A stretch of DNA of 64,000 nucleotides from an uncultured cyanobacterium (GTDB lineage: Bacteria; Cyanobacteriota; Cyanobacteriia; Cyanobacteriales; Cyanobacteriaceae): assembly GCA_963749915.1 (NCBI GenBank), contig CAVVOP010000022.1, positions 128,001 through 192,000 on the forward strand. Direction: 5' to 3'. How positions within the stretch are numbered: position 1 is the first letter of the stretch; every line of letters begins with the position of its first letter. The position numbers and the translations under genes are program-made. The notes beneath the pieces are model-generated. The model ran no database searches. It was not told the origin of the DNA and saw only the letters and a list, made by a program, of their open reading frames with translations. This document shows positions 25,870-50,301 of the stretch, one piece after another.

Positions 25870-27319
25870 GTATTGGCGACGAACCTTCATAATGAACCAT
25901 TTCACTGACGACTTCATTAATGCCGTTTTGACTAACTTTATCAGCTTTTACTTCTATTTCCAATCATTGTAACGTTTCGTAACTGCTAATTCCCCAATCT
26001 TCATACTTGCAACCTGTCTTACTGATATGAATGTAGCCTGATCTTGATGTAAGTCGTGTCTGTGGTGCTTTACCTTTTAGTGACATCACTTTGGTCAATA
26101 CTTGTTCGTATAGAATTCGATTTGTATTAAATGGCGTATCTCTATAAAAACCAAAACATTTTGGGAATAATTGCTGAATGACAATTGGAACAGGAATGTA
26201 AACTTCATCATGATGTTATCTCTACCTCCAGCAGTCACTGGTTTAAGCCCTTTTTTCAATGAAACGTTTGAGTTTCGACATAAAGAGGTAAAAAAACAGT
26301 TTTTTCTATTTTTGCGCACTTGCTTTACTACTAGGATATGTTGCAAAGCACTTTTGCAAATCAATCAATGGGTCTTGTAAAATGTCAACATCGAACTCAA
26401 AAAGCGTATTTTCTGTTTTACAAGGTTATAGTTTAAAGTCCTTTGGCTTGATACATTGCAGGACATAATCAGTTGGACTCATCGTTGAAAACCGGATTGT
26501 AACTTTTATTAGCTTGATATTCTGGTTTGTCGATGATCAACCCATCCGTTTGCTTTCAAGGAAACTCTAAATTTACCTTTATCTCGTAATACGCAGTGTT
26601 CAATTGATTTTTCAAGATTGTGGGTATTTTCAGTGAAAGCAATTCTACTGTTTACAAATGTCAAAGACACATCTAATTTCAGAATATTCAGTATGAAACT
26701 CACTTAAAACATTTGTTCTTGCCGGAAAATTTAACCTGTTTTCTACTTTGTATTCGTTGTTGATATATTTTGTCGCAATTAATTTGACCAGTAGGCTGAC
26801 TTAAAACCTTTGTCAATATTGTCAAACTTTCTCGCACGGTGTCATTGTCAGTTTTTCAAGAGCTGCTATGAATTTTACAGCTTCCAAGTACAATGGCGGT
26901 CTGAAATTCTTGCCTGATGACAATGGTAAACTGTCAATGACCTCTGGACTAATTTCAGTTCCAAGTAGGTTCAGAATTTCAATATAGTCCTCAAATCTGT
27001 CACGCCCGGCAAACCTAGGCATAACTACAAAATCACCAATTTGCTTTCCAGTGTCAGAAGCTCTCAAAGGAATAGAGCCAATGAAACCTGATGAACGGAA
27101 TGTTAGTGCAGTGCTTTGGTCTGAGCCCATTATGTATGGCTGAACACCTAGGAATTTAAATTGCTCAGAGTTGTAGTCAATAAATTTCTGGAGATATTGA
27201 CCAATAATTCTTTTGTCTGCTGACTTAAACCACTTTTTTTGCAAGGCAACTCCACCAAACTGTTTTGATTGTTCAGTTAGGCAAGGAATTTCGCAAAAAA
27301 CATCTAATGGCTTTGTCAT
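25870..27319 (-). pseudogene. mcrC: McrC-like restriction subunit, multiply frameshifted
   Basis: Directly follows mcrB. N-terminal ORF 26822-27319, with downstream out-of-frame fragments resembling VFIDAKYK and HRHDLHQ. Confidence 0.6.
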
Positions 27320-28708
27320 TCGAAAAGAGATAGATTTATTCTAGTAGAGAAATAGTTATTGAATTCTTCTTTAGCATTTCGTAAAAGTCCTTCTTGTAGA
27401 TATTCTTTTATCAAGGGGAATATTTGCATAGCGAATGCGATTTTTCATTTCGTCCTCGGAGTCAGCAATGAAGTAGCCTTGACCAGGTTGCAAGTTCAAT
27501 TCAGTACTTAAGGCATACCAGTCAAAAATTTCTTGAATCCTGCTAAAGTCTTCGTTGTAAAACTGTCTCGACTTTATGGCTTTTGGCTTTAAAGTGTACC
27601 AGGCAAAACGTCTTCTAAGTGCAAAGTCAACAACGGCCAAACTTCTATCGGCAGTGTTCGATAGTTGAAATTACAGAAAAGTTATCAGGCAGTTGCTTTA
27701 CCTTGAAGTTGGGAGCAATTTCAATCTCAACATTTGAAACGTCCATCTTATGTTCAAAAAGGTAAAAAATAGGTCCCAATACATTTGAAAGATTGGCTCT
27801 GTTTATTTCATCTATGATAAGGGTAACTTTTTCATCTTTGTGGTCAATGGCAGTATTTTAAGGCCTCTGAAAAACTACCTAAATTTTCTTTATATCTCAG
27901 TTCTTCGTTTGCTGTGTCTGGTCTAATTCCGAAAATAAGATCGGAGAAACTTGTCTCTGCGTGAAATTGAGTGAAGAATGTTTTTGCGCCTATTTTTTCG
28001 GCAACAACTTTTTGCAGTCCTTGTTTTTCCAGTTCCAGGAGGCCCTTGAAGAACAATGTACTTTCTTTCGTTTAAGAGATTTTTTACTTCTTCAGATTCA
28101 TCTAGTTGTTTCTGTTTTAAAAATGGCTCTAAAGCTTCTGAAACTGCTTTCCGATGGTCTTTGTTAGAAGGCCAATCTCTAAGCTTTGCATAACCTGCGA
28201 CAAAAGCTGCAATAATTTGTTTTCCGTCTTCGCTTTCTGGGTCGTCAACTATTTGACAGGTTGGTAAAACTTTGGTGTAAGTTTTAATCGTGTTTTTTAT
28301 ATGTTGTAAATCCAGACTGCCAGTGATTGATTTTGGTAGACTAGTTTCGATGTCTGAAAAATCAGATTTGCAAAATCCTCTTTCGTTAGTCAGCTTTGAA
28401 AATAATCTTCTAAGTCCTGGATAGGTTGCAAGTTCGTAGTCATTTTTGAAACCACTGGACCCAATTCCAAGACATACTAACCAAGGTTTATTTTGGTCGT
28501 TTGGAAAAATTGTCAATGAAAAGTCGTGGAAAGGGCCGGACGCTTCTTCCTCTGGATGGATAAATCCAAAATACGCTCCGTTGTCTTTAAGTGCTTCCTG
28601 TCCGGTGTTGTTTCGTTCAACATAAGGTTTGTTGAATTCGTTGTTTGTCTTGGCACCGAATTGTTCCGCTTTTTCTTTTATGAATTGTCTAATGTTTTCT
28701 ATGCTCAT
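27316..28708 (-). pseudogene. mcrB: McrB-like AAA+ GTPase, frameshifted
   Basis: GPPGTGKT, TQFH, LIIDEINRANL and NTADRSLAVVDFALRRRF are spread over several frames. Confidence 0.85.
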
Positions 28709-28724
28709 AAAACGTCCTTACGAT

Positions 28725-28731
28725 GCCTAAC
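28725..28731 (-). other. attI-like core GTTAGGC
   Basis: Minus strand CTAATAAATA-GTTAGGC lies 16 nt before the mcrB ATG, between the divergent intI and the first cassette. Confidence 0.6.
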
Positions 28732-28919
28732 TATTTATTAGACCGAAACTTTCCTGATAGTCAGCCCTTATGGAACAAAAAAACGAAACTTTCTGGATAT
28801 TCACCCCAATGAAAATAATATCAAGAAATTTTCCGTATTTTCTTTGATGATAGCCAGAAACTTTCTGGGTATCATACCAAATAGTCATAATATCAAGACT
28901 TTTTCTGAATATCATTACC

Positions 28920-29249
28920 ATGGAAAAACCTCCTAAAAAATTGCTCGAACAGGTTAGCGATATAATTCGTCTGAAACATTACTCTTACAAAACTGAAAAA
29001 AGTTACGTTAATTGGATTAAACGCTATATCCTATTCCATAATAAACGGCATCCCAAAGGGTTCAGTTTATTTACCATTTGCCTTGGAGAGAAAATATAAA
29101 AATGCAGATCGAGAATGGATATGGCAGTTTGTGTTTCCTTCCCATCGAATTTCACAAGATCCTCGTAGGAAAGTTTTTCGTCGTCTATGATTTATACTCA
29201 TGTCCTAAATCGAGGTGGGAGAGGTGTTATAAGTCCTCTTGATCCATGA
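28920..29249 (+). pseudogene. intI: Integron integrase remnant, internally deleted
   Basis: [46 protein letters not shown] / [31 protein letters not shown] (IntI-specific insertion) / [19 protein letters not shown]. Confidence 0.9.
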
Positions 29250-34996: not shown

Positions 34997-35070
34997 CGGG
35001 GCGTAGCGCAGCTTGGTAGCGCACCACTTTGGGGTAGTGGGGGTCGTGGGTTCAAATCCCGCCGCTCCGA
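34997..35070 (+). tRNA. tRNA-Pro(GGG), the CAST homing target
   Basis: Cloverleaf CGGGGCG...CGCTCCGA; anticodon arm CCACT-TT-GGG-GT-AGTGG; T-loop GTTCAAATC. Confidence 0.97.
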
Positions 35071-35079
35071 TTTATGTTT

Positions 35080-35150
35080 TGTACATTCAATAATTAATTG
35101 TCGTTGTTCACACATTATTGTCGCTGTTTAACAAAATAATTTCGTTAAGT
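35080..35150 (+). mobile_element. CAST left end (tRNA-proximal)
   Basis: TGTACATTCAATAATTAATTGTCG-TTGTTCACACATTATTGTCG-CTGTTTAACAAAATAATTTCG: TGTACA terminus plus tandem TnsB sites. Confidence 0.9.
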
Positions 35151-35256
35151 AATTTTTTTGTTGAACTTAGCATGTTCTTTATATTACGTCACATAGAAAT
35201 TCTGCAATACCTTGTTTGTTCGCAGGATTTCATAACTGTGTTAAAAGAGGATACAA

Positions 35257-35293
35257 ACCCCAAAGTCGTGCGCCTTTCAATCTTACTCACACT
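35257..35293 (-). CRISPR. Delocalized homing crRNA: variant partial repeat plus 17-nt spacer against tRNA-Pro
   Basis: Minus strand AGTGTGAGTAAGATTGAAAG + GCGCACGACTTTGGGGT; 16/17 match to tRNA 35019-35035, which is preceded by a GTA PAM. Confidence 0.92.
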
Positions 35294-35400
35294 TTAAATC
35301 ATATCATTTTCTGAAGATAGATGTGAAATAAAATATGTCTATTCCCAATTTTCCTTTTTTCCACAAGCTACTTTTCTCGCTTTCAATACTCTATCCATAT

Positions 35401-35728
35401 CTATCAATCTACACAAAATACGAACAAGAATGTAAGAACACATACAGTTATTGTTTTATGCTTGAAGCATCCCCTCTCAATCTACAAAACACTAATTAGA
35501 GCATTTAAACCTTATTGGAGCAATTAGAAACAAGTATTCTGAACACTTTCAATCTACCAAACACTAATCAGAGTATTGAAACGAAAAGGTATCTGAATTT
35601 ATTTATCGAAGGGTCGCTCTTTCAATCTACCAAACACTAATCAGAGTATTGAAACCAAATAAAGATTTAGTTAAAAAAGCGGTAGAAAAAACTTTCAATC
35701 TACCAAACACTAATCAGAGTATTGAAAC
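35401..35728 (-). CRISPR. Type V-K CRISPR array: 3 perfect and 2 degenerate 37-bp repeats, 35-36 bp spacers
   Basis: Repeat (minus) GTTTCAATACTCTGATTAGTGTTTGGTAGATTGAAAG at 35692-35728, 35619-35655 and 35546-35582; degenerate copies at 35474-35510 and ~35401, keeping the 72-73 bp period. Confidence 0.95.
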
Positions 35729-35919: not shown

Positions 35920-36250
35920 ATTAGTGTGAAGTAAGATTCCTTCGGTGAAGAAGGTGATTCAGTAACCATCTCTGTAGTCATCCACATCCTCATTAGAGGA
36001 CTAAGCTCAGAAATAACCTTATTCTTTGCTTTACTTCTTATTGCTGGGAGCGTACCTAACCGATAGAATATAGATAGCATTATCATTTTCTGTCAATATT
36101 TCCTTTCTCTGAGCAAGGTTCAGAGATCGCAGCCTCAGAAGTGGACAGTTACTAGGGTCAGAAAGAATAACTATTGCTTAATAGTCAAACTAACCCACTT
36201 TTTTCACAGTGCAGAGGTTTTGTCTAAACATGGACTGCGACGCTAACTCT
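35920..36250 (-). ncRNA. Cas12k tracrRNA (~320-330 nt)
   Basis: Minus-strand blocks recalled from V-K tracrRNAs: TAGCGTCGCAGTCCATG, GGGTTAGTTTGACT, CTTTCTGACCCTAGTAACTG, TAGGTACGCTCCCAGCAATAAG, TACTGAATCACC; 3' anti-repeat AATCTTACTTCACACTAAT. Confidence 0.88.
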
Positions 36251-36296: not shown

Positions 36297-38186
36297 TTAG
36301 GCAGATTTTTCCAAGCGACAATTATAACTATTGAGTGCTGTGGTTTTGGCTTTTTCTTGAGGTGTTCCCGATTTAGGTTGGCTGCCAAACTCGATTGCGA
36401 TTCCTTCTTGAGAAGCTAACTGACTAATATATTCGGTTAGTCGGCTATAACTCCACTGGTGTATGTTTTTGCGGTATTCTTTGGCATATTTTTTCTGTGC
36501 TTTCTTGTAACCCATGATTTTAGTTTCTGCTTTGGCTTGAACTTCGCTCAGGATACTTTCTTTGATGTTAGTTAACTTTGGTAAAACAATACTTTGTGCT
36601 TGATAAAATTTAGCCGTTTGTACGATCGCCCTAGCGATTAATCGATCGATGTATTCTCCAAGGTTAGACTCCCCTTTGTTGCTGAATTTGTCTTGTTTTT
36701 GGGGGTGATGTCTTTGCTTAGAAAGTTTGATTTTTTGTTGCCGTTGACGATTGAGAAGTGAATAGTTGTCGCCTAAAAGTTGCTTGATACTTCGATAGAC
36801 GATCGCATCTTGAGTTATTACATTGACAACAGCTACAGTAGCAGGTTTTTGTAATCCAAAACTGACTCCCAGAATAATATTTGGATTTCCCTGATAAACT
36901 TTTTTGTGTGGGCGTGGATAAGAGGTATTAATTCTAGCTAAACTAGATTCTTTTCGTTTTTGATCTGCTAACTGATTGGGAGTAAGTTCTGATTTTTCTT
37001 GATGTTTATCGATTTTTTCTTTTGTCTTTTGGCTTTTTTCTTGTGCTATTTGGTTTGTGCCTTCGGCAGTCCAAAAACGGGTATCAATGGAACATTGTAA
37101 ATATAGTTTGTGAACTTCCCAAGGATTTCCCTTTCCTTGTTCTTCACGCCATAATATTCTGGCAGAACGAAGAGTAAATAAAGCACTACTATATTTACTG
37201 GAATCTTGTTTATAAGTTTGTTGATCTTCCCAAAAACGTTGAAACCAATGAAGCTGACGACGATCGCATCTTAGTTCAAATTGATGTTTACTTAGACCAT
37301 TGAATTTGACTAATAAATGTCCTCGTTGATCTTGTATCCAAGTTAAATCGATATTAGTTTCATAGGCGATAGGATAGGGAATAACTGGAGATTTTTTCAA
37401 AAGACGACTTTGCCACTCAGATGCTTCTTCTTCTGTTTCGGGAACTTTGTCAGATGTGATCGTCAAGGTTTCTAACCATTTGTCTTGGGTTAAATCTCTG
37501 CCTTGGGGAAGTCTATTTTCCAGTTGTTGTTGATGTCTTTCGATTTCAATTTCCTTTTTTCTACGATATTGTTGGAATTGCTTTATGTCTTCAATTTCAT
37601 CGGGTATTTGACATTGATTTTTAAGTAGGTAGGCAATGGCACATCGATCAAGAATGTCTGTTCGTAACTCGTATTCATTCATAAAATGTTGGAACAAATC
37701 ATTGTCTTTTTTTTGTTTCTTCTTTTTTCCTTGTTTGTCTGACTTTAGGTTATTTTGAGCTTCTTTGAGTATTTTGTGGGCTTGATCGACAATTTTTTCA
37801 ATATTACTCCCTGATATTGCTTCTAACTCAGCATCACTTTTGAGAATATTAAGCCATCTCTGTTTACCTTCTATTTTTCTTTGTAGTCTAGCTTGAACGG
37901 CAAACCATGATTTGTATATGTAATGGGTAAGAGCGATCGCACTGGTAAAAAAACGTCCTGGTTGATTTTGATACTGGGGTAAATCCCTTAAAGGTTGGCA
38001 TATATCCTTAATTGGTTTTTGAGATATTTTTTTTGTCTTGAACCATTCTTCAAATTCTTCATGATGAGAGACTCTATAGAGTAATTCGTTAACAAGGGGG
38101 GTATTTTTTTCGCTCATCAGTTTCCAAAGATAACGCAGTGAGTCTGACGGAGCATATAAGCGACATTCAATAGTTTTCTGGCTCAT
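36297..38186 (-). CDS. cas12k: Type V-K effector Cas12k (nuclease-dead RuvC); likely start MSQKTIECRL
   Basis: TIECRL..LWKLM.EKNTPLVNEL, YIYKSW, RRQLHWFQRFWED, YSSALFTLRS, LGVSFGLQKPAT, SIVLPKL, HQWSYSRL; context with array and tns genes. Confidence 0.96.
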   Translation of the reverse strand: MSQKTIECRLYAPSDSLRYLWKLMSEKNTPLVNELLYRVSHHEEFEEWFKTKKISQKPIKDICQPLRDLPQYQNQPGRFFTSAIALTHYIYKSWFAVQARLQRKIEGKQRWLNILKSDAELEAISGSNIEKIVDQAHKILKEAQNNLKSDKQGKKKKQKKDNDLFQHFMNEYELRTDILDRCAIAYLLKNQCQIPDEIEDIKQFQQYRRKKEIEIERHQQQLENRLPQGRDLTQDKWLETLTITSDKVPETEEEASEWQSRLLKKSPVIPYPIAYETNIDLTWIQDQRGHLLVKFNGLSKHQFELRCDRRQLHWFQRFWEDQQTYKQDSSKYSSALFTLRSARILWREEQGKGNPWEVHKLYLQCSIDTRFWTAEGTNQIAQEKSQKTKEKIDKHQEKSELTPNQLADQKRKESSLARINTSYPRPHKKVYQGNPNIILGVSFGLQKPATVAVVNVITQDAIVYRSIKQLLGDNYSLLNRQRQQKIKLSKQRHHPQKQDKFSNKGESNLGEYIDRLIARAIVQTAKFYQAQSIVLPKLTNIKESILSEVQAKAETKIMGYKKAQKKYAKEYRKNIHQWSYSRLTEYISQLASQEGIAIEFGSQPKSGTPQEKAKTTALNSYNCRLEKSA

Positions 38187-38327
38187 AATTTTTATCCTCA
38201 ACAAGAGACTAAATCTAATATAGCATGACCAAAGATGTTAATTAGTGGCTAATAAGTGGCAATAACTAGAATCAGATCTTTTCGTTATAGGATCGATAAA
38301 GTATAAAGAAAAACTAATGAGAGAGTA

Positions 38328-38495
38328 ATGACAAAGAGAGTGTATTTAACACTAGCGGATAAGGTTTATGATGCGTTGGAAAGGTGGGCAAATGATCAGG
38401 GGCGCCCCGTTGCCAATTTAGCCGCCTATTTGGTGGAAAGGGCGATCGAAGATGCTGAAAATGAGGGGAAAATACCTCCCTTGACTAAAAAATAA
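38328..38495 (+). CDS. 55-aa ribbon-helix-helix (CopG/Arc-like) repressor, divergent from cas12k (absent from ORF track)
   Basis: MTKRVYLTLADKVYDALERWANDQGRPVANLAAYLVERAIEDAENEGKIPPLTKK*; occupies the usual CAST regulator position. Confidence 0.85.
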   Translation: MTKRVYLTLADKVYDALERWANDQGRPVANLAAYLVERAIEDAENEGKIPPLTKK

Positions 38496-38589: not shown

Positions 38590-40182
38590 ATGGCAAAAAA
38601 CAAAGAAAATAATAACAATACAACTGACAATAAAAGTTTAGAAAGTTGGATTTGGGATGCGGCTTGTAGCATTCGAGGGGTTCAGGAAGCGTCTAAGTAT
38701 AAAGATTTTATATTACCTTTAATTTTTACGAAACGTCTTTGTGATGTTTTTGATGATGAGTTAAATCGTATTGCTAAGAAGATTAAAACTCGTGCTAAAG
38801 CCTTTGAGTTTGTTGAAAATGATCATGAGTTAGTCAGATTTTATTTACCTCTGAAACCGAAAAATCCTGATGATGATGTTTGGAAAGTGATAAGAACTTT
38901 AAGCGATGCCAACACAGAAAAGAGCGATTCTTCTGTAAGCTACGGTGAAAGGGTGACTAATTATTTAAGAGATATTGCCAAAGAGAATCCATTATTAAAG
39001 GGAATTTTAGATAGAGTTGATTTTAATGCGACAACTCACGGCGAAAGGGATTTAGATGACGATCGCCTGTCAAATTTGATTGAGAAAATTTCTGAGAAAA
39101 GATTAGGGTTAAATGATGTTGAACCTGATATTATCGGACGTAGCTATGAGTATTTAATTCGCAAGTTTGCTGAAAGTGGTGGGCAGTCGGCAGGGGAGTT
39201 TTATACGCCGATGGAAGTGGGGATGATAATGGCGAAAATTATGCAACCTAAGCCAAGTATGGAAATTTATGATCCTTGTTGTGGTTCGGCAGGTTTATTA
39301 ATTAAGTGTCAATTGGTTTTACAGGAAGAACAGGGAGATAATCAATACGCACCATTGCAGTTATATGGACAGGAATATACTGCTAATACTTGGGCAATGG
39401 CGAATATGAATATGATTATTCATGATATGGAGGGAAAAATTGAAATAGGTGATTCTTTTAAAAATCCCAAGTTTAAGTATAAAGGGAAGTTGAGACAATT
39501 TGATCTAGTTGTGGCTAATCCGATGTGGAATCAAAACTGGTTCACTGAAAAGGATTATGATAACGATGAATGGGGGCGTTTTCCAAAGGGGGCAGGTTTC
39601 CCCGGTTCAAAAGCTGATTGGGGTTGGGTTCAACATATTAATGCTTCTTTGAAAGATGATGGTAAAGCGGCGATCGTTCTTGATACGGGGGCGGTTTCGA
39701 GGGGTTCTGGGAATGCTAACAGGGATAAGGAAAAGGATGTGAGAAAGTGGTTTATTGAACAAGATTTAATTGAAGGGGTGATTTATTTGCCTGAAAATCT
39801 TTTTTATAACACTTCTGCACCGGGTATCATTTTAATCTTAAATAAGGCTAAATCCGCAGAAAAAAAAGATAAGTTATTTTTTATTAATGCCAGTTTAGAG
39901 TTTGCTAAGGGCGATCCGAAAAACTATATTCCTGATGAGGGTATTAATCGCATTGCTGAGACTTTTTTAAGTTGGCAAGAAATCGATAAGTTTAGTTGTA
40001 TTGTTGATAAGGCTAAAATTGTTGAGAATGATTATAATATCTCTCCTTCTCGTTATATTCATGTAGCTGAGGCTGAAGAATTTAGACCAATTAGTGAGAT
40101 TTTGCTAGAGTTGGATGAGTTGGAGAAGGAAGCAGAAACAACAAATAAGAATTTAATGCAGGTTTTAAGTAAGTTTAGGTAA
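38590..40182 (+). CDS. hsdM: Type I R-M methyltransferase subunit (cargo)
   Basis: GEFYTP, YDPCCGSAGLL, ANPMW (variant of NPPF/W), ENLFYNT. Confidence 0.93.
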   Translation: MAKNKENNNNTTDNKSLESWIWDAACSIRGVQEASKYKDFILPLIFTKRLCDVFDDELNRIAKKIKTRAKAFEFVENDHELVRFYLPLKPKNPDDDVWKVIRTLSDANTEKSDSSVSYGERVTNYLRDIAKENPLLKGILDRVDFNATTHGERDLDDDRLSNLIEKISEKRLGLNDVEPDIIGRSYEYLIRKFAESGGQSAGEFYTPMEVGMIMAKIMQPKPSMEIYDPCCGSAGLLIKCQLVLQEEQGDNQYAPLQLYGQEYTANTWAMANMNMIIHDMEGKIEIGDSFKNPKFKYKGKLRQFDLVVANPMWNQNWFTEKDYDNDEWGRFPKGAGFPGSKADWGWVQHINASLKDDGKAAIVLDTGAVSRGSGNANRDKEKDVRKWFIEQDLIEGVIYLPENLFYNTSAPGIILILNKAKSAEKKDKLFFINASLEFAKGDPKNYIPDEGINRIAETFLSWQEIDKFSCIVDKAKIVENDYNISPSRYIHVAEAEEFRPISEILLELDELEKEAETTNKNLMQVLSKFR

Positions 40183-40222
40183 TTTTCATTAGGCAACAAA
40201 TAGACAATTAAAGAAAATTTAT

Positions 40223-41518
40223 ATGCTTTTATCTCCAATAAAAAATATCCCCAAAGACTGGAAAATAGTTGAACTACAGAATGCAGGTGAAGTTATTTAT
40301 GGAATTCAAGCATCTGTTGCTAATAACATTGAGCCAATCGGAACAAAAATATTAACTAACAAAAATATTACTCTTGATGGTGGTTTTGATTTAGAAAAAA
40401 TTAACTATTTTGAATTGAAAACAAAGCGACATAAAGAAACCATTTTAAAACAAGGTGATATTCTTTTTAATTGGCGTAGTGGTAGTAAAGATCATGTAGG
40501 AAAAACAGCTTATTTTAACTTAGATGGTCAATATACTCATTCTTCCTTTATTCTTAGAATACGTTGCAACACTAATACCATTTATGGTAAGTATTGTTAC
40601 TATTATTTGCTATGGTTGCATAAATCAAAGTATTTTCTAAAACTTCAAACTTATGCTATCAATGCAAAATTCAATAAGAGTGCAGTTAATTTATTACCAA
40701 TTATTCTTCCCCCAATTGAAGAACAAATAAAAATAGTCAATGTTTTAAGTTTAGTACAAAAAGCAATTAGTGAACAAGAAAAGGCGATCGCTTTAACAAC
40801 AGAATTAAAAAAGGCGTTAATGCAAAAACTATTTACCGAAGGGCTAAATAATGAACCTCAAAAAATGACTGAAATAGGTCTTATTCCTGAAAGTTGGGAG
40901 GTTAAAGAATTAAAATATTTTATTGAAATACCTCAATATGGTTTTACTGATAGTGCAAGTGATAAAGGAAATACCAAATTTTTAAGAATTACAGATATTA
41001 CAGAATTTGGAGTAAATTGGAATACAGTACCATTTTGCAATTGTCCAATTGAGAAAATCGATCAATATTTATTAAAAGACAATGACATTGTTTTTGCTCG
41101 AATTGGTGCAACAACTGGAAAAAGTTATATTATTAAAAATCCTCCTTTTTCGGTATTTGCCTCATATTTAATTAGAGTTAGAGCAATAAAAATAGATCCC
41201 GATTATTTATTTCAATTTTTTCAAACACAAATTTATTGGCAACAAATTAATGCTAGAAAAGACGACAGTTTGAAGAAAGGTGTCAACGGTTCTGTATTAA
41301 AAAATATTCTGATTCCAATTCCATTAGAAAAAGAGCAAAAAGAAATTGCAAAAATATTTCAAACTTTTGAGCAAGAAACTAATTTATTAATGATAAAAAA
41401 ATCACAATTACAAGAGTTATTTAAAACTTTATTACATCAATTAATGACTGCTCAAATAAGAGTAGATGAATTAGATTTAAGTGTATTAGAGACTCAAATA
41501 GAGGAGGTTAGAAATTAA
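40223..41518 (+). CDS. hsdS: Type I R-M specificity subunit (cargo)
   Basis: Two TRDs separated by LPPIEEQ...LKKALMQKLFT..IGLIPESWEV. Confidence 0.92.
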   Translation: MLLSPIKNIPKDWKIVELQNAGEVIYGIQASVANNIEPIGTKILTNKNITLDGGFDLEKINYFELKTKRHKETILKQGDILFNWRSGSKDHVGKTAYFNLDGQYTHSSFILRIRCNTNTIYGKYCYYYLLWLHKSKYFLKLQTYAINAKFNKSAVNLLPIILPPIEEQIKIVNVLSLVQKAISEQEKAIALTTELKKALMQKLFTEGLNNEPQKMTEIGLIPESWEVKELKYFIEIPQYGFTDSASDKGNTKFLRITDITEFGVNWNTVPFCNCPIEKIDQYLLKDNDIVFARIGATTGKSYIIKNPPFSVFASYLIRVRAIKIDPDYLFQFFQTQIYWQQINARKDDSLKKGVNGSVLKNILIPIPLEKEQKEIAKIFQTFEQETNLLMIKKSQLQELFKTLLHQLMTAQIRVDELDLSVLETQIEEVRN

Positions 41519-43462
41519 ATGCTAACCTTTGATGAAATTTGGGAAATGTTAACTACCCAAGATGAAAGTACAGAAATAGAAGCGAAAAAAGCCTCTGATA
41601 TGGGTAAAAGCATTTTGGAAACTATTAGTGCTTTTTCCAATGAATCAGGTTTAGGTGGCGGTTATTTATTATTAGGAATAAAATCAGCAGAAGATAGTCA
41701 AAATAATATTTATGAGATTGAAGGTTTAGCAGAACCTGATAAAATTCAAAGAGATTTAGCTTGTCAATGTCGAGAAGTTTTTAACATTCCCATTCGCCCT
41801 CAAATAGAAACTATTACAAAAGAAGGGAAAACGGTTATTGTCGCTTTTATTCCCGAAGCTCAACCCTCAGAGAAACCAGTTTATATTACTAAAAGAGGAC
41901 TACCCAAAGGAGCATTTAGACGTATAGGCTCAACGGATCAAAAATGCACAGAACGAGATTTAGAATTATTCTATCAAGAAAGAAGTAATCAAACTTTTGA
42001 CCAAACTCCCGTTAAAGATGCAAGTTTAGATGATTTTGAGTCACAGGCTATTGATGCTTATCGCCGTATTAGAAAACAAGTAAACCCCAATGCTAGTGAA
42101 CTTAACTATAGCGATCGTGATTTATTAGATTCTTTATATGCCATAACCAAACATCCCAATCAAAAAGGAGAATATTGCCCTACTGTAGCAGGATTAATTT
42201 TATTTGGTAAAGAAATAGCCTTAAGAAAGCATTTTCCTTTACAGCGTGTTGATTATATTGTAGTTGAAGGAAAGGAATGGGTAGAGAATCCAGATAAACG
42301 TTATCAAAGTGTGATTGAAATTCGTCAGCCTTTATTATTGGCTATTCCTCGACTAACAGCTTTAGTTTTAAACGATTTACCTAAAGCCTTTAATCTTCCT
42401 GAAGATCAGATAAATCGGCAAGATATTCCTTTAATTCCTAGTGCGGTTATTAGAGAAGCTATTGTTAACGCTGTTATGCACAGGGATTATCGTATTCGTA
42501 GCCCAATTCAGATTATTCGATATTCAGATCGTTTAGAACTTCGTAACGCTGGTTATTCTTTAAAATCAATAGACGAATTAGATCAACCAAGTTCAAAAAC
42601 TCGTAATGAAAAAATAGCTGAAACTCTCCATGAGTTAAATATAGCCGAAACTAAAGGATTTGGTATTAGAACCATGTTAGAAAATATGCGACAAGCAAAT
42701 CTAACTATTCCTTTATTTGAATCAAGTAGAGAAAAAGACTCTTTTTGTCTTACTTTATTTACTCATCATTTTTTAGAGCAAGAAGATATTGACTGGTTAA
42801 CTCAATTTAAAGATCTTAACTTAAGTAAAGAAGAAACAAATGCTTTAGTTGTAATTAAAAAAACAGGTAAAATAAATAATTCAATTTATCGTTATGTTAA
42901 TGATGTTGATATAAATAAAGCAAGTAAGCAATTAATAAAATTAAGGGATTTAGGTTTAATTAATCAAAATGGTAAAAGCATAGCCACTTATTACACCATC
43001 AAGCCTGAATTTTTATCGGGACAGTTAGAAAAACCTTATCAAGATAGTAGTACAGATAATCAAGACACCTTATCAGGACAGTCAGAAAAACCTTATCAGG
43101 AAGACAATACAGGCAATCAAGACACTTTATCAGGACAGTTAGAAAAACCTTATCAAGACAGTAGTACAAGTCAACAGGGACAGTTAACTCTTGATTTATT
43201 TCCGCCTCTAAGCAAAAAAAAACTTGAAGAAAGATTAAATAAAATTGGTAAACGAACCGAACCAGAGGAAATGAAAAGCCTAATATTGGAATTGTGCAGA
43301 ATAAAGCCTTATTCATCTAGTGAATTAGAAAAATTGTTAAAACGAAAGCGAAAATATTTATTAGAACAATATCTTAAGCCTTTAATTGATGACAAGTTAC
43401 TAGAATACACTAACCCCAATAGTCCTAACGATCCTCATCAAACTTATCGCACAAAACAATAA
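41519..43462 (+). CDS. AlbA_2/HATPase/HTH ('RecG-like') ATP-binding protein with an internal 19-aa repeat (cargo)
   Basis: ESTEIEAK, ETISAFSN..GG.LLLGI, REAIVNAVMHRDY, RNEKIA, C-terminal PNDPHQTY. Confidence 0.85.
   Translation: MLTFDEIWEMLTTQDESTEIEAKKASDMGKSILETISAFSNESGLGGGYLLLGIKSAEDSQNNIYEIEGLAEPDKIQRDLACQCREVFNIPIRPQIETITKEGKTVIVAFIPEAQPSEKPVYITKRGLPKGAFRRIGSTDQKCTERDLELFYQERSNQTFDQTPVKDASLDDFESQAIDAYRRIRKQVNPNASELNYSDRDLLDSLYAITKHPNQKGEYCPTVAGLILFGKEIALRKHFPLQRVDYIVVEGKEWVENPDKRYQSVIEIRQPLLLAIPRLTALVLNDLPKAFNLPEDQINRQDIPLIPSAVIREAIVNAVMHRDYRIRSPIQIIRYSDRLELRNAGYSLKSIDELDQPSSKTRNEKIAETLHELNIAETKGFGIRTMLENMRQANLTIPLFESSREKDSFCLTLFTHHFLEQEDIDWLTQFKDLNLSKEETNALVVIKKTGKINNSIYRYVNDVDINKASKQLIKLRDLGLINQNGKSIATYYTIKPEFLSGQLEKPYQDSSTDNQDTLSGQSEKPYQEDNTGNQDTLSGQLEKPYQDSSTSQQGQLTLDLFPPLSKKKLEERLNKIGKRTEPEEMKSLILELCRIKPYSSSELEKLLKRKRKYLLEQYLKPLIDDKLLEYTNPNSPNDPHQTYRTKQ
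43013..43183 (+). repeat. 57-bp in-frame tandem repeat, about 3 copies
   Basis: Units start at 43013, 43070 and 43127 (LSGQLEKPYQDSSTDNQDT). Confidence 0.9.
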
Positions 43463-43485
43463 ATTATCTTTTTCTTCTCTCAAAT

Positions 43486-46428
43486 ATGCCTAAACCAACT
43501 GAACATAAAACCGTCCAAGATCGCATCTTAACCTATGCCCAAGAAATAGGTTGGACATTTGTACCTCGTAAAGAAGCCGAAGCTAAAAGGGGTTTTAACG
43601 CCCCTTTACCCACGAGTTTGGGAAAACAAAAGGGCGTTGAAATTCAACACAAAGCCCAACAAGGATCATTATATTTTGATGATACTTTGTACCAAAAAGT
43701 CAAAGAATTTAATCCTCATTACAACGAAACCAAAGGGGATTTAATTAAACGCCTCAATAACTTATCCCTCGACATTTACGGTAATCGAGATTTTCTGAAC
43801 CTTCTACAAAATCAAGGTAAATACTTTTATCAAGCTGAGAATAGAGAACTAGATTTAATTTTAGTGGATTACGATCGCTCTGAAAATAATATTTATGAAG
43901 TTACAGAAGAATATTATACCCATAACGGGAAATACGGCACAAGGGAAGATGTGGTATTTTTAATTAATGGTATTTCAGTATTGGTCATTGAATGTAAAAA
44001 CGCCAATAAGAATGAGGCGATCGCATTAGGAATTGATCAAATTAGACGTTATCACCGAGAAACCCCAGAGTTATTTATTCCCCAAATGTTATTTACAGCT
44101 ACAGAGGCGATCGGTTTTGCCTATGGCGTAACTTGGAATATCGTCAGACGCAATATTTTTAACTGGAAAGATGAAGAAATTGGGCAACTAGAAAACAAAA
44201 TTAAGACTTTTTGCCATCCCCAAATAATCTTAAAATTTCTGAAAAATTATATTATCTTTGCGGAAAAAGACGAAACTTTACAAAAATATATTCTAAAACA
44301 ACATCAAACCTTAGCTATCGAACAAGTAATTAACCGTTGTCACGATGAAACTAAATTTAGGGGATTAGTGTGGCACACTCAGGGAAGCGGAAAAACCTTC
44401 ACCATGATTAAAACTGCCGAAATGCTCTTTAAAGCCCCAGAAAGCGAAAAACCCACTATTATTCTAATGATCGATCGCAACGAATTAGAAGATCAAATGT
44501 TACGCAACCTGAATAACTTAGGGGTTAACAATATTCGCCATGCCGATCGCATAAAAACCCTTGTGGAATTACTCGAAAACGATTATCGAGGTATTATTAT
44601 CACCATGATTCATAAATTCCGAGAAATGCCTCCTAACATCAACACAAGAAAAAATATTTATATTTTGATAGATGAGGCACACCGCACCACAGGAGGAGAT
44701 TTAGGCACATTTTTAATGGCAGGTTTGCCCAATAGCACAATTATTGGCTTTACTGGTACACCCATTGACAAAACCAATCAAGGAAAAGGTACTTTCAAGG
44801 TTTTTGGGGTTGATGATGAAAAAGGTTATTTACATAAATACTCGATCGCTGAAAGTATTGAAGATGGTACAACTCTACCCCTTTACTATAACATCGCTCC
44901 TAATCAATTATTAGTCCCTGCGGAAATAATGGAGCAAGAATTTCTTGATTTAGTAGAAACAGAAGGGATAAACGATATAAGTGAACTCAATAAAATTTTA
45001 GATCGAGCAGTTAATTTAAAGAATTTTCTCAAAGCAGATCAAAGAATTGATCAAGTAGCAAAATATGTTGCTGAACATTATACAACCAATGTCGAACCGT
45101 TAGGATATAAAGCCTTTTTAGTAGCCGTCGATCGCCCTGCTTGTGCTAAATATAAAGAAGCCTTAGATCGTTATTTACCCCCTGAATATTCGGCGGTAGT
45201 CTATACAGGTAATAACAACGATAGTGAAGAACTAAAGGCTTACCATCTCGATGATAAAACAGAGAAGCAAATCCGCAAAAACTTCGCTCGTTTTGGAGAA
45301 TATCCGAAAATTTTAATAGTAACGGAAAAACTATTAACAGGTTATGACGCACCATTACTATATGCCATGTATCTGGATAAACCAATGCGAGATCATACCC
45401 TCTTACAAGCGATCGCCCGTGTTAATCGCCCTTATGAGAATGAAACAGAGGAGATGCTTAAACCTCATGGCTTTGTCTTAGATTTTGTGGGTATTTTTGA
45501 TAAATTGGAAAAAGCCTTAGCCTTTGATAGTGAAGAAGTTAACGCTATTGTTAAAGATTTACAATTACTTAAAAATTTATTCAAAATCAAAATTGAGCAA
45601 TTAGTTCCCACTTACTTGCCCCTAATTAAACATAACTTTAACGATCAAGATGTCGATAATTTAATTGAATTTTTCAGGGAAAAAGAACAACGCAAAGGAT
45701 TTATTAAAGGCTATAAAGAGTTAGAAATGCTTTATGAAGTTATATCACCAGATGCTTTTTTACGCCCTTATATTGACGATTATACTAGCCTCTGTGGCAT
45801 TTATCAGGTGGTTCGTAATGCTTATACTCGCAGAATTTATCTCGATCGAGAAGTGAAACGCAAAACTGATGAAATAGTACAACAAAATATTGGGACAACG
45901 GCGATCGCCTCTATTAATGAATTTATCGAAATTAATGCAGAGACAATTGAAACCATTAAAAACAAAAAAAATGGTAACACAACCAAAGTAATTAACTTGG
46001 TAAAAAGTATTGAAAAAATAGCAGAAGAAAATAAAGATGATCCCTTTTTAATCGCTATGGCACAAAGAGCAAAGGCGATCGAAGAAAGATTTGAAACAAG
46101 ACAAGTTGATACTCAAGAAACTTTAGATTTATTATTTCAAGAAATCAAAAATAATGAACAAAGGAAAAAGGAACAATCCGCCCAAGGCTTTGATAATTTA
46201 AGCTATTTTGTTTATAAAATCTTAAAAGATGCTGGAATAGAAAGCCCAGAAGAAGTAAGTCATCAGATAAAACAAGCATTTGTTGATTATCCTAACTGGA
46301 AGAAAAGTGAAAGAGAATTAAGAGAATTACGAAAAGAAGTTACTTTTTCTATCTATGAAAAAATAGATGATTTAGATCAAGTTACTGATATTGTTAATCA
46401 GTTATTCAACCTCTTAAATCAAAATTAA
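43486..46428 (+). CDS. hsdR: Type I R-M restriction subunit (cargo)
   Basis: D.VFLING...VIECK, HTQGSGKT, DEAHR, FTGTP, LLTGYDAP, QAIARVNR. Confidence 0.94.
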   Translation: MPKPTEHKTVQDRILTYAQEIGWTFVPRKEAEAKRGFNAPLPTSLGKQKGVEIQHKAQQGSLYFDDTLYQKVKEFNPHYNETKGDLIKRLNNLSLDIYGNRDFLNLLQNQGKYFYQAENRELDLILVDYDRSENNIYEVTEEYYTHNGKYGTREDVVFLINGISVLVIECKNANKNEAIALGIDQIRRYHRETPELFIPQMLFTATEAIGFAYGVTWNIVRRNIFNWKDEEIGQLENKIKTFCHPQIILKFLKNYIIFAEKDETLQKYILKQHQTLAIEQVINRCHDETKFRGLVWHTQGSGKTFTMIKTAEMLFKAPESEKPTIILMIDRNELEDQMLRNLNNLGVNNIRHADRIKTLVELLENDYRGIIITMIHKFREMPPNINTRKNIYILIDEAHRTTGGDLGTFLMAGLPNSTIIGFTGTPIDKTNQGKGTFKVFGVDDEKGYLHKYSIAESIEDGTTLPLYYNIAPNQLLVPAEIMEQEFLDLVETEGINDISELNKILDRAVNLKNFLKADQRIDQVAKYVAEHYTTNVEPLGYKAFLVAVDRPACAKYKEALDRYLPPEYSAVVYTGNNNDSEELKAYHLDDKTEKQIRKNFARFGEYPKILIVTEKLLTGYDAPLLYAMYLDKPMRDHTLLQAIARVNRPYENETEEMLKPHGFVLDFVGIFDKLEKALAFDSEEVNAIVKDLQLLKNLFKIKIEQLVPTYLPLIKHNFNDQDVDNLIEFFREKEQRKGFIKGYKELEMLYEVISPDAFLRPYIDDYTSLCGIYQVVRNAYTRRIYLDREVKRKTDEIVQQNIGTTAIASINEFIEINAETIETIKNKKNGNTTKVINLVKSIEKIAEENKDDPFLIAMAQRAKAIEERFETRQVDTQETLDLLFQEIKNNEQRKKEQSAQGFDNLSYFVYKILKDAGIESPEEVSHQIKQAFVDYPNWKKSERELRELRKEVTFSIYEKIDDLDQVTDIVNQLFNLLNQN

Positions 46429-46430
46429 TT

Positions 46431-46766
46431 ATGCTTTCAATCGATAAACAAAAAACGTGGAAAAATACTGAAGACTTGAAAAATACAGTTTGGACATGGA
46501 GCGATCGCATTAATGTGCAAGTCAAAGAGATTCAACTACGTCAAATGAAAAATAAATGGGCTTCTATCTCTACGACAGGTAGATTAACTTTAAATAAAGA
46601 ATTGATGGATTTACCTCAAGAATTAGGAGAATTTGTAATTGTACATGAATTAATTCATCTACTCGTACCTAATCACAGCAAATTGTTTAAATGTTATATG
46701 TCAGTCTATTTACCAGATTGGCAAGATCGAGAAAAACGCTTAAAAAAGTTATCTTCTCAAAAATAA
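46431..46766 (+). CDS. M48/YgjP-like metallopeptidase (cargo)
   Basis: MKNKWAS, VHELIHL..PNH; typical partner downstream of hsdR. Confidence 0.85.
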   Translation: MLSIDKQKTWKNTEDLKNTVWTWSDRINVQVKEIQLRQMKNKWASISTTGRLTLNKELMDLPQELGEFVIVHELIHLLVPNHSKLFKCYMSVYLPDWQDREKRLKKLSSQK

Positions 46767-46788: not shown

Positions 46789-47295
46789 TTATTTTTGCTT
46801 TTTACTCATCTTCGTAAATGATAAATGACAGCGATCGCATCTACCATCTTTCCATAGAGAAGGAACAGAAAAAGAAGTTCCACAGTTAGGACATTTAGAA
46901 AGTAATTTCACCTTATGAAGATCGCATCCTCTTTTCTTCTTATCTTGCCATTGTAAACGATGATAGGGAGCTTCTTGATAACACATTCCACACAGCATAA
47001 TCGGTTTAATTTGCGTCACCATACCCTGATAAGGAAACATTTCCCGAAGGCGATCGACATCCAACATCACGACTGTTGCTAATTTTTCTAATTCTTGTGG
47101 CGTAGGAAAGGGAGAAAAATAAAACTTTTCCCATCGAGCCAAAATAGCCCCCAATCCTGCCACTTCACCCAATCCACTTGGTGCGGAGAAACGATTTCCT
47201 TTCGCACGGCGAAATCTGCCCAAGAAATGACTAATACTTTCCCCTTCAAATGGCTCAACTTTGGTTAACCACAACTCACTTTCTCTTTCTTTCAT
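46789..47295 (-). CDS. tniQ: TniQ, short V-K type
   Basis: PFEGESISHFLGRFRR, RWEKF...P, CxxC/CxxH zinc motifs. Confidence 0.93.
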   Translation of the reverse strand: MKERESELWLTKVEPFEGESISHFLGRFRRAKGNRFSAPSGLGEVAGLGAILARWEKFYFSPFPTPQELEKLATVVMLDVDRLREMFPYQGMVTQIKPIMLCGMCYQEAPYHRLQWQDKKKRGCDLHKVKLLSKCPNCGTSFSVPSLWKDGRCDRCHLSFTKMSKKQK

Positions 47296-48136
47296 AAGAC
47301 CATTTTGTTGATGCTATAACTTGTTTTAATATCTCAGGAGTAATGTGTGTTTCTCCCCTCGAAAGGGAACGAATTGCCGCCTTGCGTAAAATCATGTCTA
47401 AACGTCCAATCAATTTACGAGTAGCAGTTTTGAGTAGTTTTAAATTGTCTGCTTCCGCTAAATTTGAAGGTTCAGGTAATCTCAGGACATTTTTCTCCCA
47501 AACTTGCACAATCATTTTAAACTCCTTATCATCAAGGCGATCTAGTTCGTATTCTTCTAAGAAACGATTAGCAACCTGTTCATCTCTTTTGACAACGGCT
47601 TCTAAACGACTGGTTGTACCCACCAACAAAACAGATATATTCAACTCATCTTCATCGTAAACGTGCCTGACATCAGCAAAAGTTTCTTGCTTTAAATGAT
47701 TAGCCTCATCCACAATCAACATCTCGCAACCATGAATCGCTAAACCATCGAGAGTCCTTTCCCTCAAATCCGATATTGTTCCTTTGGTGGGCTTATTCAA
47801 TGCCTTGAGTATCTTGATGAAAAAATCTCTTGAGCCACATTTTTCAGGTACTTGAATATAAACCACTGGCTTAATCCGTTGCTTTTGCCCTTGTTTTGAC
47901 TTATTGTATCTGGCGGCAAAAGATTTACAAGTAACTGTTTTCCCACAACGAGATTCCCCCACTAATAACCCTGTCATCCTAGAAAGAATCAACTCATACA
48001 TCCAACCGTGACACTGTTTTACCTGTTCAAACTCAATATATGGATCTTTCCTTAATCGCTCAATTTCGGCTTGAATTTCAGCAGTGATAGTAGGAAAGTT
48101 ACCAAACTGGTGTGCGATCGTCTCTACATTTGTCAT
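47276..48136 (-). CDS. tnsC: TnsC AAA+ ATPase
   Basis: Walker A GESRCGKT, Walker B MLIVDEA, VLLVGT, IGRLD.ILR.AAIRSL. Confidence 0.94.
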   Translation of the reverse strand: MTNVETIAHQFGNFPTITAEIQAEIERLRKDPYIEFEQVKQCHGWMYELILSRMTGLLVGESRCGKTVTCKSFAARYNKSKQGQKQRIKPVVYIQVPEKCGSRDFFIKILKALNKPTKGTISDLRERTLDGLAIHGCEMLIVDEANHLKQETFADVRHVYDEDELNISVLLVGTTSRLEAVVKRDEQVANRFLEEYELDRLDDKEFKMIVQVWEKNVLRLPEPSNLAEADNLKLLKTATRKLIGRLDMILRKAAIRSLSRGETHITPEILKQVIASTKWSYERKRK

Positions 48137-48159: not shown

Positions 48160-49851
48160 TTAATGATCATCAAAAAGGTCATCCATGTATGACACTTCGT
48201 AAGTAGGTATTTCTTCATCTAAGTCCTCATCATTTTCATCTTCAACTATTTCAGGTTCAGGAATTGTCAATTTTTCCGCCATAGTTTTAGTTGGATTAAC
48301 CTCTTTGTGAGCTACCTGACGGCGTTCTTGTCGATCCTTTTTCGTGAGAGTTTCCAACAAAACTTCCCTTTCTAACATGGCATCAAGTACCGCATCATTA
48401 TTGATTTTTTCCTGTTCTCGATTGAGATTTTTATTAATCGCCTTCAGTTCACGCAATGACAGACTTTCGGCTTCTAATCCTTGAGCATGGGCATAATCAA
48501 GGAATTTTTCTGTACCGTCATTCAAACGCTCATAAACCAATATTGTCGTTATATCTTCAGGATCATAGCGAATTGAGACGATTTCCCCTGCCATTCCCCG
48601 CAAATGTTCACTTTTATAGGTGATATTTTCAAACTGCAACGTGCCAAACTTCTGAATAGTCCTTCGAGTCTGCCTCATCAAACAAATGTCTAGTTCCCTT
48701 TCTTCATAGGGTTCAGGCTCAACTACTAACCCATTTTCCCACAGTTGTATGCGAGCTTGGTCTTTTCTCCTGCCATCTGGTTTTTGATTATATTCATCAA
48801 CAATATACTTCACCAAGATAAGTTCGAGATCTCTCAGGGTAAGACTAGCATTTTGATCAACATTGTTAGGTCTTTCCTGAACATTTGCACCTGTATAGCC
48901 TGGTAATTCCCTCAACACATTATCATTTAGTGTCCGAAAAAACCTTTCAACAATACCACCATCCGATGGTCTTCTTCTTAAAGAACAAGTAAACCCCAAT
49001 CCCACTGCTATGTGTTCTGTTAGATGAATCGAACGAAAATCCTTGCCACCATCTGTATAAAAATATGTGGGAGTACCATAAGCAGTCCATTCGTTACGCA
49101 AAGAATATTCTGAGCCATAATATTTAGGTAAAATAGCATGACGTAATGCTAAAGCGTCTATTTGAGAACTAGGACTCTCAAAGCCTAAATAAAATCCCAT
49201 TAAACAACGAGAATATGAGTCAATAATGATTGTTAACCAAGGACGATCTAACACCCCAAACTCATCGACCAATCTCACATCGAGACGAGTATGATCGCAT
49301 TGCCAAACATCATTACTAGCTTCTACTTCAAGTTCTCTACCATCACGAGTCATGTGGGTTAATTTCGAGCCTGAATATCCTGGACTTCTAGCTTTGCGTT
49401 TTTTGTCTTGTTCTTGTACATATTGATCGATAATTCTATAGACTGTTTGATGACTGGGATAATCTTTTTTTTCTAAACCTAATTGTTTAGCACGTCCTTT
49501 GACTTTCAAAAAAACTTGATGGCGAGTAATGCGTTTACCATTTTGATTTCCTTTCTTGTAGGCATCTAAAATGAAATCAAACCACTCTTGATCAATACGG
49601 ATTGTACCTTTATCTGCCCTAGTTTTGATTATGCCCACAAAACCTTCTTCTCGGTATTTTTTCATCAATCTTTCGATGGAACGAATTGATACACCCAACT
49701 TTTCAGCCGCTTGTTGTTTTCTTTCACGATACAAGGTGCGATCGCATGGTTCAATCAGACTTTCAACGACTTCCATTCTCAATTTTACCTCATCGGTAAT
49801 CTGTTCTTCAGAAGGAAGCCTATATACTTTTGGTTGCTTCGATAATGCCAT
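48160..49851 (-). CDS. tnsB: TnsB DDE transposase; start uncertain (49851 or 49914)
   Basis: WQCDHT, RPWLT.IIDSYSRC, YTDGGKDF, GIVERFF: intact DDE. Confidence 0.95.
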   Translation of the reverse strand: MALSKQPKVYRLPSEEQITDEVKLRMEVVESLIEPCDRTLYRERKQQAAEKLGVSIRSIERLMKKYREEGFVGIIKTRADKGTIRIDQEWFDFILDAYKKGNQNGKRITRHQVFLKVKGRAKQLGLEKKDYPSHQTVYRIIDQYVQEQDKKRKARSPGYSGSKLTHMTRDGRELEVEASNDVWQCDHTRLDVRLVDEFGVLDRPWLTIIIDSYSRCLMGFYLGFESPSSQIDALALRHAILPKYYGSEYSLRNEWTAYGTPTYFYTDGGKDFRSIHLTEHIAVGLGFTCSLRRRPSDGGIVERFFRTLNDNVLRELPGYTGANVQERPNNVDQNASLTLRDLELILVKYIVDEYNQKPDGRRKDQARIQLWENGLVVEPEPYEERELDICLMRQTRRTIQKFGTLQFENITYKSEHLRGMAGEIVSIRYDPEDITTILVYERLNDGTEKFLDYAHAQGLEAESLSLRELKAINKNLNREQEKINNDAVLDAMLEREVLLETLTKKDRQERRQVAHKEVNPTKTMAEKLTIPEPEIVEDENDEDLDEEIPTYEVSYMDDLFDDH

Positions 49852-49904
49852 TACCCAAACTAATTTACTATTTAACTCTTTTTTTAGAATAGCATTTAGC
49901 CCAA

Positions 49905-50137
49905 GAAACGACAACTAAAATATTAAATTATTCTGCAATGGTCAATTGATCTGATCAAAAAATAAGCGACATTTAAAACTTTAAAAACAATAATAAACGA
50001 CATTTAACTGTTGAAATAAGTTGTCCGATTCCACAAGAACATAAAAAGCACTCTAATCCATATATAATGGCATTTATAGAGATTTTTAATGGCGACAATA
50101 ATGTGTTAAACAGCGACACTTAATTATTGAATGTATA
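49905..50137 (-). mobile_element. CAST right end with multiple TnsB sites; terminus TATACA instead of TGTACA
   Basis: Reverse complement TATACATTCAATAATTAAGTGTCGCTGTTTAACACATTATTGTCG mirrors the left end; further CGACA sites near 49910, 49967 and 49998. Confidence 0.88.
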
Positions 50138-50301
50138 CTTGTTTTAAAAGGGTTTTAGAGATTCTACATATTTCCAGAACTCTTTTCTATTGTCAATAAG
50201 CCGGGCGAAAATAGTTCATTTTAGATAGTTTTAGTTCTATAATTGGTAGATAAAATGAAAGAATCATAAATTTTTGGAGATGTCTATTGCAGAAGGTGTG
50301 C

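Follow-up and report, generated by a model that had tools for sequence, protein, structure and literature searches.

Type V-K elements carry a homing unit of their own, for which "delocalized crRNA" is said to be Saito's 2021 term. Other names for it are truncated repeat-spacer unit (bioRxiv 10.1101/2021.02.06.429022) and anchor spacer (PMC9938897). In their accessible parts, these sources describe a 17-nt anchor spacer, a truncated repeat (R*), a GTN PAM and 46–82 nt to the left end (PMC9938897), and report homing units in nearly all of 282 V-K elements when fewer than four mismatches are allowed, the match being mostly perfect (bioRxiv 2021.02.06.429022). The word "mismatch" is absent from the accessible main text of PMC9938897, and Figure 3B of bioRxiv 2021.02.06.429022, which gives the match at each position, may already display the seed depletion described below. 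The accessible part of PMC12416283 gives a mean PAM-to-left-end distance of 62 for V1, and as criteria for V-K_V2 it lists an Arc_2 regulator, an anti-repeat 2 (AR2) that follows P4, a repeat end GGTGGTGGGTTGAAAG, a PAM-to-left-end distance of 54 nt, a TnsC of about 306 aa, and a Nostocales host.

In the window, the 64,000-nt stretch of cyanobacterial DNA that was analysed, we found an element that shares with ShCAST and AnCAST the order tRNA, left end, anchor, array, tracrRNA, cas12k, regulator, cargo, tniQ, tnsC, tnsB, right end, as well as a 17-nt spacer and a GTN PAM; its PAM-to-left-end distance is 61 bp (Table 1). It differs from these systems in having one mismatch outside the seed, a feature that is common in the family; in an R* pairing of about 15 bp rather than about 9; in a regulator of the RHH_5 family rather than a MerR-type CvkR; and in a non-canonical right-end terminus.

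Table 1. Features of the element and its attachment site, in window coordinates
Feature	Position	Strand	Remarks
tRNA-Pro(GGG), attachment site	34997..35070	+	sole gene with a GGG anticodon in the assembly
PAM GTA	35016..35018	+	in the tRNA D-loop
Anchor protospacer	35019..35035	+	inside tRNA-Pro(GGG); mismatched base 35025 is tRNA position 28, anticodon stem
Target-site duplication, left copy	35075..35079	+	5 bp, TGTTT
Left end	35080..35145	+	TGTACA and three TnsB-site-like repeats (cores 35099, 35119, 35140)
Homing (anchor) spacer	35257..35273	-	17 nt; 16/17 match to protospacer; mismatch at 35267
Truncated repeat R*	35274..35294	-	about 15 bp pairing with tracrRNA anti-repeat 2, one bulge
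CRISPR array	35401..35728	-	three identical 37-nt repeats, two degenerate (32/37, 20/37); four spacers of 35-36 nt
tracrRNA anti-repeat 2 (AR2)	35923..35938	-	directly after P8-like hairpin 35939-35954
Predicted tracrRNA, V1-like	35923..36250	-	z -2.25; HMM match E 1.2e-7
AR1 of predicted tracrRNA	36161-36165		CTTTC
Promoter-like site of predicted tracrRNA	36281-36252		
cas12k	36297..38204	-	635 aa, open frame; NF038191, 864 bits (cut-off 150)
Ribbon-helix-helix regulator RHH_5	38328..38495	+	divergent; PF07878, 64.4 bits
Cargo	38590..46766	+	type I R-M (hsdM, hsdS, hsdR), AlbA_2/RecG-C protein, YgjP-like peptidase
tniQ	46789-47295	-	Pfam TniQ match under the curated cut-off (21.2 vs 27)
tnsC	47276-48136	-	286 aa
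tnsB	48160-49914	-	
Right end	49966..50139	-	four TnsB-site-like repeats; read inward, the terminus is AGTATAC and not the canonical TGTAC
Target-site duplication, right copy	50140..50144	+	TGTTT, provided the right end is placed at 50139

In the assembled sequence, the homing spacer differs from its protospacer only at position 7, where the spacer has G and the gene has C, and the match ends at exactly 17 nt. The R* that precedes the spacer ends ATTGAAAG, and the left end begins with TGTACA at 35080, 61 bp from the PAM. A 16/17 match would arise by chance with a probability of 5.8e-10 per site, or about 1e-6 within 1 kb. The genome contains a second 16/17 match to the spacer (0.005 expected), on contig C21, apparently in a coding gene and preceded by CAA instead of GTN, and so the case rests on match, PAM, position, and repeat taken together. 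The preliminary description had reported the 16/17 match with its mismatch at position 7, the PAM GTA at 35016–35018, and the 61 bp to the TGT at 35080, and we found all of these coordinates to be exact. Its assignment of the locus to V-K homing also holds, as the 17-nt anchor, the truncated repeat, the GTN PAM, and the spacing agree with the published anatomy. The locus is a known, textbook V-K homing unit; taken alone, it contributes a further V-K element targeting tRNA-Pro and not much beyond that. A second motif like the repeat end ATTGAAAG lies at 35380–35392 on the minus strand, between the array and R*.

The element has the cas12k of V1 elements, their tnsB-tnsC-tniQ at the right end, a predicted tracrRNA with AR1, P8, and AR2 between cas12k and the array, a short array whose 37-nt repeats end in TGAAAG, the homing unit, and a 5-bp target-site duplication (with the right end at 50139). 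V1 elements have TGT at both ends; here the left end has it, and the right end reads AGTATAC. The missing TGT bears on mobility and not on descent, and the element is V1-like. An RHH_5-family regulator adjoining cas12k is a possible point in common with V-K_V2, but the element's AR2 follows P8 as in V1, its repeat ends TTTGGTAGATTGAAAG, its PAM-to-left-end distance is 61 rather than 54, and its TnsC has 286 rather than 306 aa. A comparison by eye with the 11 Arc_2 proteins listed in the accessible supplement of PMC9938897 shows no more than a distant likeness to the regulator. An RHH_5 regulator (38328–38495) sits on a V1-type element, whereas the accessible part of PMC12416283 ties the family to the V2 subgroup.

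The tniQ, tnsC, and tnsB frames are open and DDE-like motifs were found. There is no tnsA, and no ORF of at least 100 aa lies between tnsB and the right end. The element's cas12k is the only one in the assembly, and two cas1 matches lie elsewhere in the host genome. We found no targets of the array spacers in the element's own genome, in plasmids, or in phages, and no close relatives of the element in viral contigs or plasmids. Outside the element, the broken-up ORFs at 26822–29099 look by eye like a McrBC-type locus and the start of an integrase.

The explanation that we favor, with moderate confidence, is a V-K homing unit with a tolerated substitution outside the seed and preferential loading of its guide. 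By analogy with published V-K systems, from which we infer expression and activity, a short crRNA consisting of the truncated repeat and the 17-nt spacer would pair with the tracrRNA and load nuclease-dead Cas12k, which would then bind the GTA-flanked site in tRNA-Pro(GGG); insertion by TniQ, TnsC, and TnsB would follow 61 bp downstream, without damage to the tRNA. The homing unit's anatomy is present in the DNA, and the exact geometry, a distance equal to the median of the survey described below, and the presence of all components support this explanation. The mismatch at position 7 would be a point substitution just beyond the PAM-proximal seed, tolerated and with no designed role, and the homing guide would probably be loaded preferentially, as the computed AR2 pairing suggests.

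To put the mismatch in context, we scanned 156 loci, 140 around cas12k matches and 16 from metagenome pattern matches. An anchor was called only where the PAM contained GT and the match had no more than two mismatches, or no more than four inside a tRNA; a tally of PAMs is therefore circular. Anchors were called at 92 loci, and the other 64 had short contigs, short flanks, or chance matches; removal of four duplicates left 88. Among the 87 homing spacers other than the one described here, 48 match perfectly and 39 have at least one mismatch. Only 5 of the 48 distinct mismatches fall in positions 1–6, where 16.9 would be expected (binomial p 9e-5, overstated because the loci are related). Position 7 also accounts for 5 of the 48, and mismatches are scattered over positions 7–17 with no favored site. 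In this survey, positions 1–6 of Cas12k homing guides are constrained and positions 7–17 are free. The depletion is seen alike in D-loop targets (2/22) and other tRNA sites (1/19), and it could in part reflect conservation of those tRNA positions. The median PAM-to-left-end distance at the 66 measured loci is 61, the same as here.

A mismatch of the kind found here is ordinary, common variation, and it is probably tolerated. Its substitution type is unique to this element in the survey, as C>G is absent from the 48 other mismatches. An rG:dG opposition is a harsh mismatch, and for these two reasons the mismatch at position 7 may cost more than most. Wobble-friendly C>T changes outnumber G>A changes by 16 to 7, which is not a significant bias (p 0.22). 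We found no link across the survey between mismatches and broken cas12k genes (7/13 versus 27/65, p 0.54; breakage coded by hand). A relief of guide hairpins or self-structure by the mismatches was considered and rejected (mean rank 0.39, n = 21, p 0.12). We know of no canonical V-K nuclease system, and so a rationale of guide hiding cannot be transferred from type I-F3b to V-K. The atypical (privileged) att guides of type I-F3b are likewise dedicated to homing, have a repeat that has diverged, and tolerate mismatches, and these mismatches also hide the guide from canonical I-F1, but I-F3b uses a Class 1 Cascade and no tracrRNA, unlike V-K (PMC11406308, accessible part).

In four cases, the identical mismatch is found in more than one genome. 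One of them involves an orphan V-K left end elsewhere in this genome (L307, G000:C5:979-1211), which lies 60 bp from a PAM in tRNA-Pro(TGG) and has its own R* and an anchor with a mismatch at position 10, as in L002 and L225; no cas12k is nearby and a transposase-like ORF follows. Its homing module might be usable in trans. We found no tRNA in 201 genomes that matches this mismatched spacer, which is thus not a host allele there. Because the recurrent mismatch is also present in the orphan and no host allele was found in those genomes, mismatched guides appear to travel with their elements. At another locus (L022, genome G010), the anchor has four mismatches to its own tRNA-Arg site and resembles the tRNA-Leu-type target of L018; this element possibly lies at a non-cognate site.

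Instead of being merely tolerated, the mismatch could be a selected attenuation, with weaker pairing favored after arrival, because dead Cas12k sitting inside a tRNA gene that has no second copy could block its transcription or attract further insertions. The assembly has only one tRNA-Pro(GGG) gene, and the strand paired with the guide is the template strand; dead Cas12a represses most effectively in this orientation. Occupied sites appear to be re-hit: left-end flanks end in TGT at 14 of 66 loci (for example L011, L200, and L297) compared with a background of 2.7%, and two more end in TGTAC. Such ends may be footprints left when an element inserted into an earlier left end, although they are read from one side of the elements only. 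Footprint loci are mismatched less often (5/16 versus 29/50), and some mismatches recur across elements; both points count in favor of attenuation. Together with the unique C>G type, the lower rate at footprint loci also speaks against plain drift. The difference at footprint loci is a non-significant trend (p 0.086), however, and the suggestion in the preliminary description that the mismatch limits re-targeting goes no further than this trend. In addition, 48 of the 87 anchors match without error, among them 6 of the 8 that target tRNA-Phe(GAA), mismatches show no significant excess at non-redundant tRNAs (25/52 versus 8/25, p 0.22), and they spread over positions 7–17 without a preferred site. 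We therefore regard selected attenuation as unlikely.

Somewhat less likely still, the mismatch could be a change acquired since insertion by an element that no longer moves, or an assembly error; in either case it would be uninformative about homing. Because no TGT stands at the right terminus, the element may be unable to move and the circuit may no longer be live; in the closest GTDB relative (G007, 71% Cas12k identity) the right end is canonical. Conserved CA-3' ends characterize this transposase family. The right end here exceeds the left in length by 2 bp. The substitution type is unique in the survey, and we found no second copy of the spacer. Against decay or error, the tns genes and cas12k are all open with intact motifs, the mismatch rate is alike in intact and broken elements, and contigs of near-identical elements from sequencing runs X1 and X2 can be aligned as far as 50139 and 50141, a hint that these elements have the unusual right end too.

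Such near-identical elements, about 88–97% alike, occur in runs X1–X3 and X6; the presence of relatives in RNA-library contigs is no sign of transcription. In a contig from X6 that spans 35059–35271, the 3' end of the tRNA is the same but 10 additional bases precede the left end, so that this element inserted at the tRNA independently. Elements in X2 and X3 retain the left end and R*, the alignment breaking after spacer position 5, and one left end in X3 abuts a different tRNA-like 3' end; anchors are therefore swapped among close relatives. Att sites are described as differing among close V-K elements (PMC11406308, accessible part). A search of 401 genomes of the class with up to three mismatches for other anchors to the same site gave, besides this one, only three-mismatch matches; none of 29 other fetched loci and none of 16 metagenome pattern matches was an anchor. 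In the survey, L266 homes to the same tRNA-Pro(GGG) site; its spacer matches at position 7 and is mismatched at 15 and 17. L274 also homes to tRNA-Pro(GGG), at a T-loop site. The direct repeats bordering the closest relative at its two ends (L142/L305, G007:C4) measure 18 bp rather than 5 bp and suggest that two insertions, made independently at one tRNA, have recombined. In genome G042, a related element at tRNA-Pro(CGG), in another family, has the same 9 bases between tRNA end and left end (L306:59-68) as are found here at 35071–35079; this identity may be chance in T-rich trailers.

The preliminary description had also offered a previous host's tRNA allele as the source of the mismatch. An exact scan with the 17-nt spacer of 185,579 species genomes, a set from which very close genomes may be missing and in which tRNAs are often unassembled, gave 105 matches, none of them a called tRNA, and no cyanobacterial record is among the 80 matches listed. 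With the pattern left free at positions 7–9, 401 genomes of the phylum gave 155 matches. Among the 150 listed, 147 have C or T at position 7, and nine that were fetched were confirmed as tRNA; G occurs in this spacer and in two chance look-alikes (G427 and G258), which are neither tRNA nor anchor. In four of five further genomes alleles vary at position 5, and position 7 is again C or T. The search of cyanobacterial tRNA-Pro genes for a perfect match that had been proposed found none in these genomes. That the spacer records an earlier host with G at this position of tRNA-Pro(GGG) is very improbable: the position is polymorphic among cyanobacterial alleles, but as C or T; it is tRNA base 28, which pairs with G42 (C28-G42, read from the sequence), so that G28 would break the anticodon stem and require a compensating C42; and no mismatched survey spacer has a perfect PAM-plus-target elsewhere in the DNA examined.

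For the tolerated substitution with preferential loading, the pairing of AR2 with the two kinds of repeat is relevant. The computed pairing energy of AR2 (35923–35938) is -17.5 kcal/mol for R* (35274–35294) and -9.2 kcal/mol for the array repeat, the third largest gap among 61 loci; in the closest relative the values are -15.9 and -5.4 kcal/mol. For this comparison, AR2 was fixed by an HMM of the upstream 100 nt, which allowed 61 of the 88 loci to be scored. An earlier version in which the site was chosen by folding often picked wrong sites, with the array stronger in 39 of 60, and it was replaced. Counted in Watson-Crick pairs, R* has more than the array repeat at 40 loci, equally many at 10, and fewer at 11, and it tracks its own AR2 (7.85 versus 6.07 shuffled) more than the array repeat does (6.84 versus 6.06). 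When G:U pairs are counted, R* has no advantage across the 61 loci (8.33 versus 8.26), and pairing energy shows no overall difference between R* and array at these loci (p 0.19). According to the accessible part of a structure preprint, the AR:R2 duplex has no contact with Cas12k and may serve crRNA-tracrRNA recognition (bioRxiv 2021.07.07.451486). Because the duplex lies off the protein and may serve recognition, a loading preference would be plausible. A promoter-like site at 35327–35298 was considered as an own promoter for the homing crRNA and rejected (scan 7 versus 4.2±2.1 in shuffles), and promoter-like sites near the homing crRNA show no positional peak across the 88 loci.

At 18 of the 88 loci, this one not included, R* and the homing spacer directly follow a tracrRNA-like copy that is fused to them, an arrangement resembling a natural sgRNA (L006, L010, L015, L018, L022, L025, L029, L220, L233, L235, L236, L245, L263, L274, L283, L297, L302, and L304); 12 of the 18 also have an upstream first tracrRNA in view. 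A second tracrRNA-like copy ends 25–49 nt before the spacer at all 10 loci with poor pairing between R* and the main tracrRNA and at none of the 51 others. Four second copies that were tested are 71–76% identical to the first over 189–265 nt, and a stem of at least 6 bp closes onto R* at 6 of the 10 second-copy loci compared with 0 of 51. At the 51 trans-paired loci R* pairs better than the array repeat in 39, ties in 10, and is worse in 2, a count that is partly circular because the group was defined by R* pairing.

We tentatively propose, at less than even confidence, that V-K elements rank the homing and array pathways through the tracrRNA. In most elements, and strongly in this one, AR2 would have co-evolved with R* rather than with the array repeat, so that the homing guide is loaded ahead of the array guides and a mismatch in it is affordable. 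Another group (18/88 loci, in at least four host families) would instead have a homing guide that is a natural single-guide RNA, with the main tracrRNA mostly fitting the array repeat better (9 of 10 scored). Neither the AR2-R* preference nor fused guides were found in the literature searched, which lacks most subscription papers, including Saito 2021. The survey provides a natural mismatch map for Cas12k homing guides. If the side results on AR2 pairing and fused guides hold, the choice between homing and targeting of mobile elements, made without a dedicated protein, would become directly testable, and the fused guides would offer natural single-guide scaffolds for V-K integration tools.
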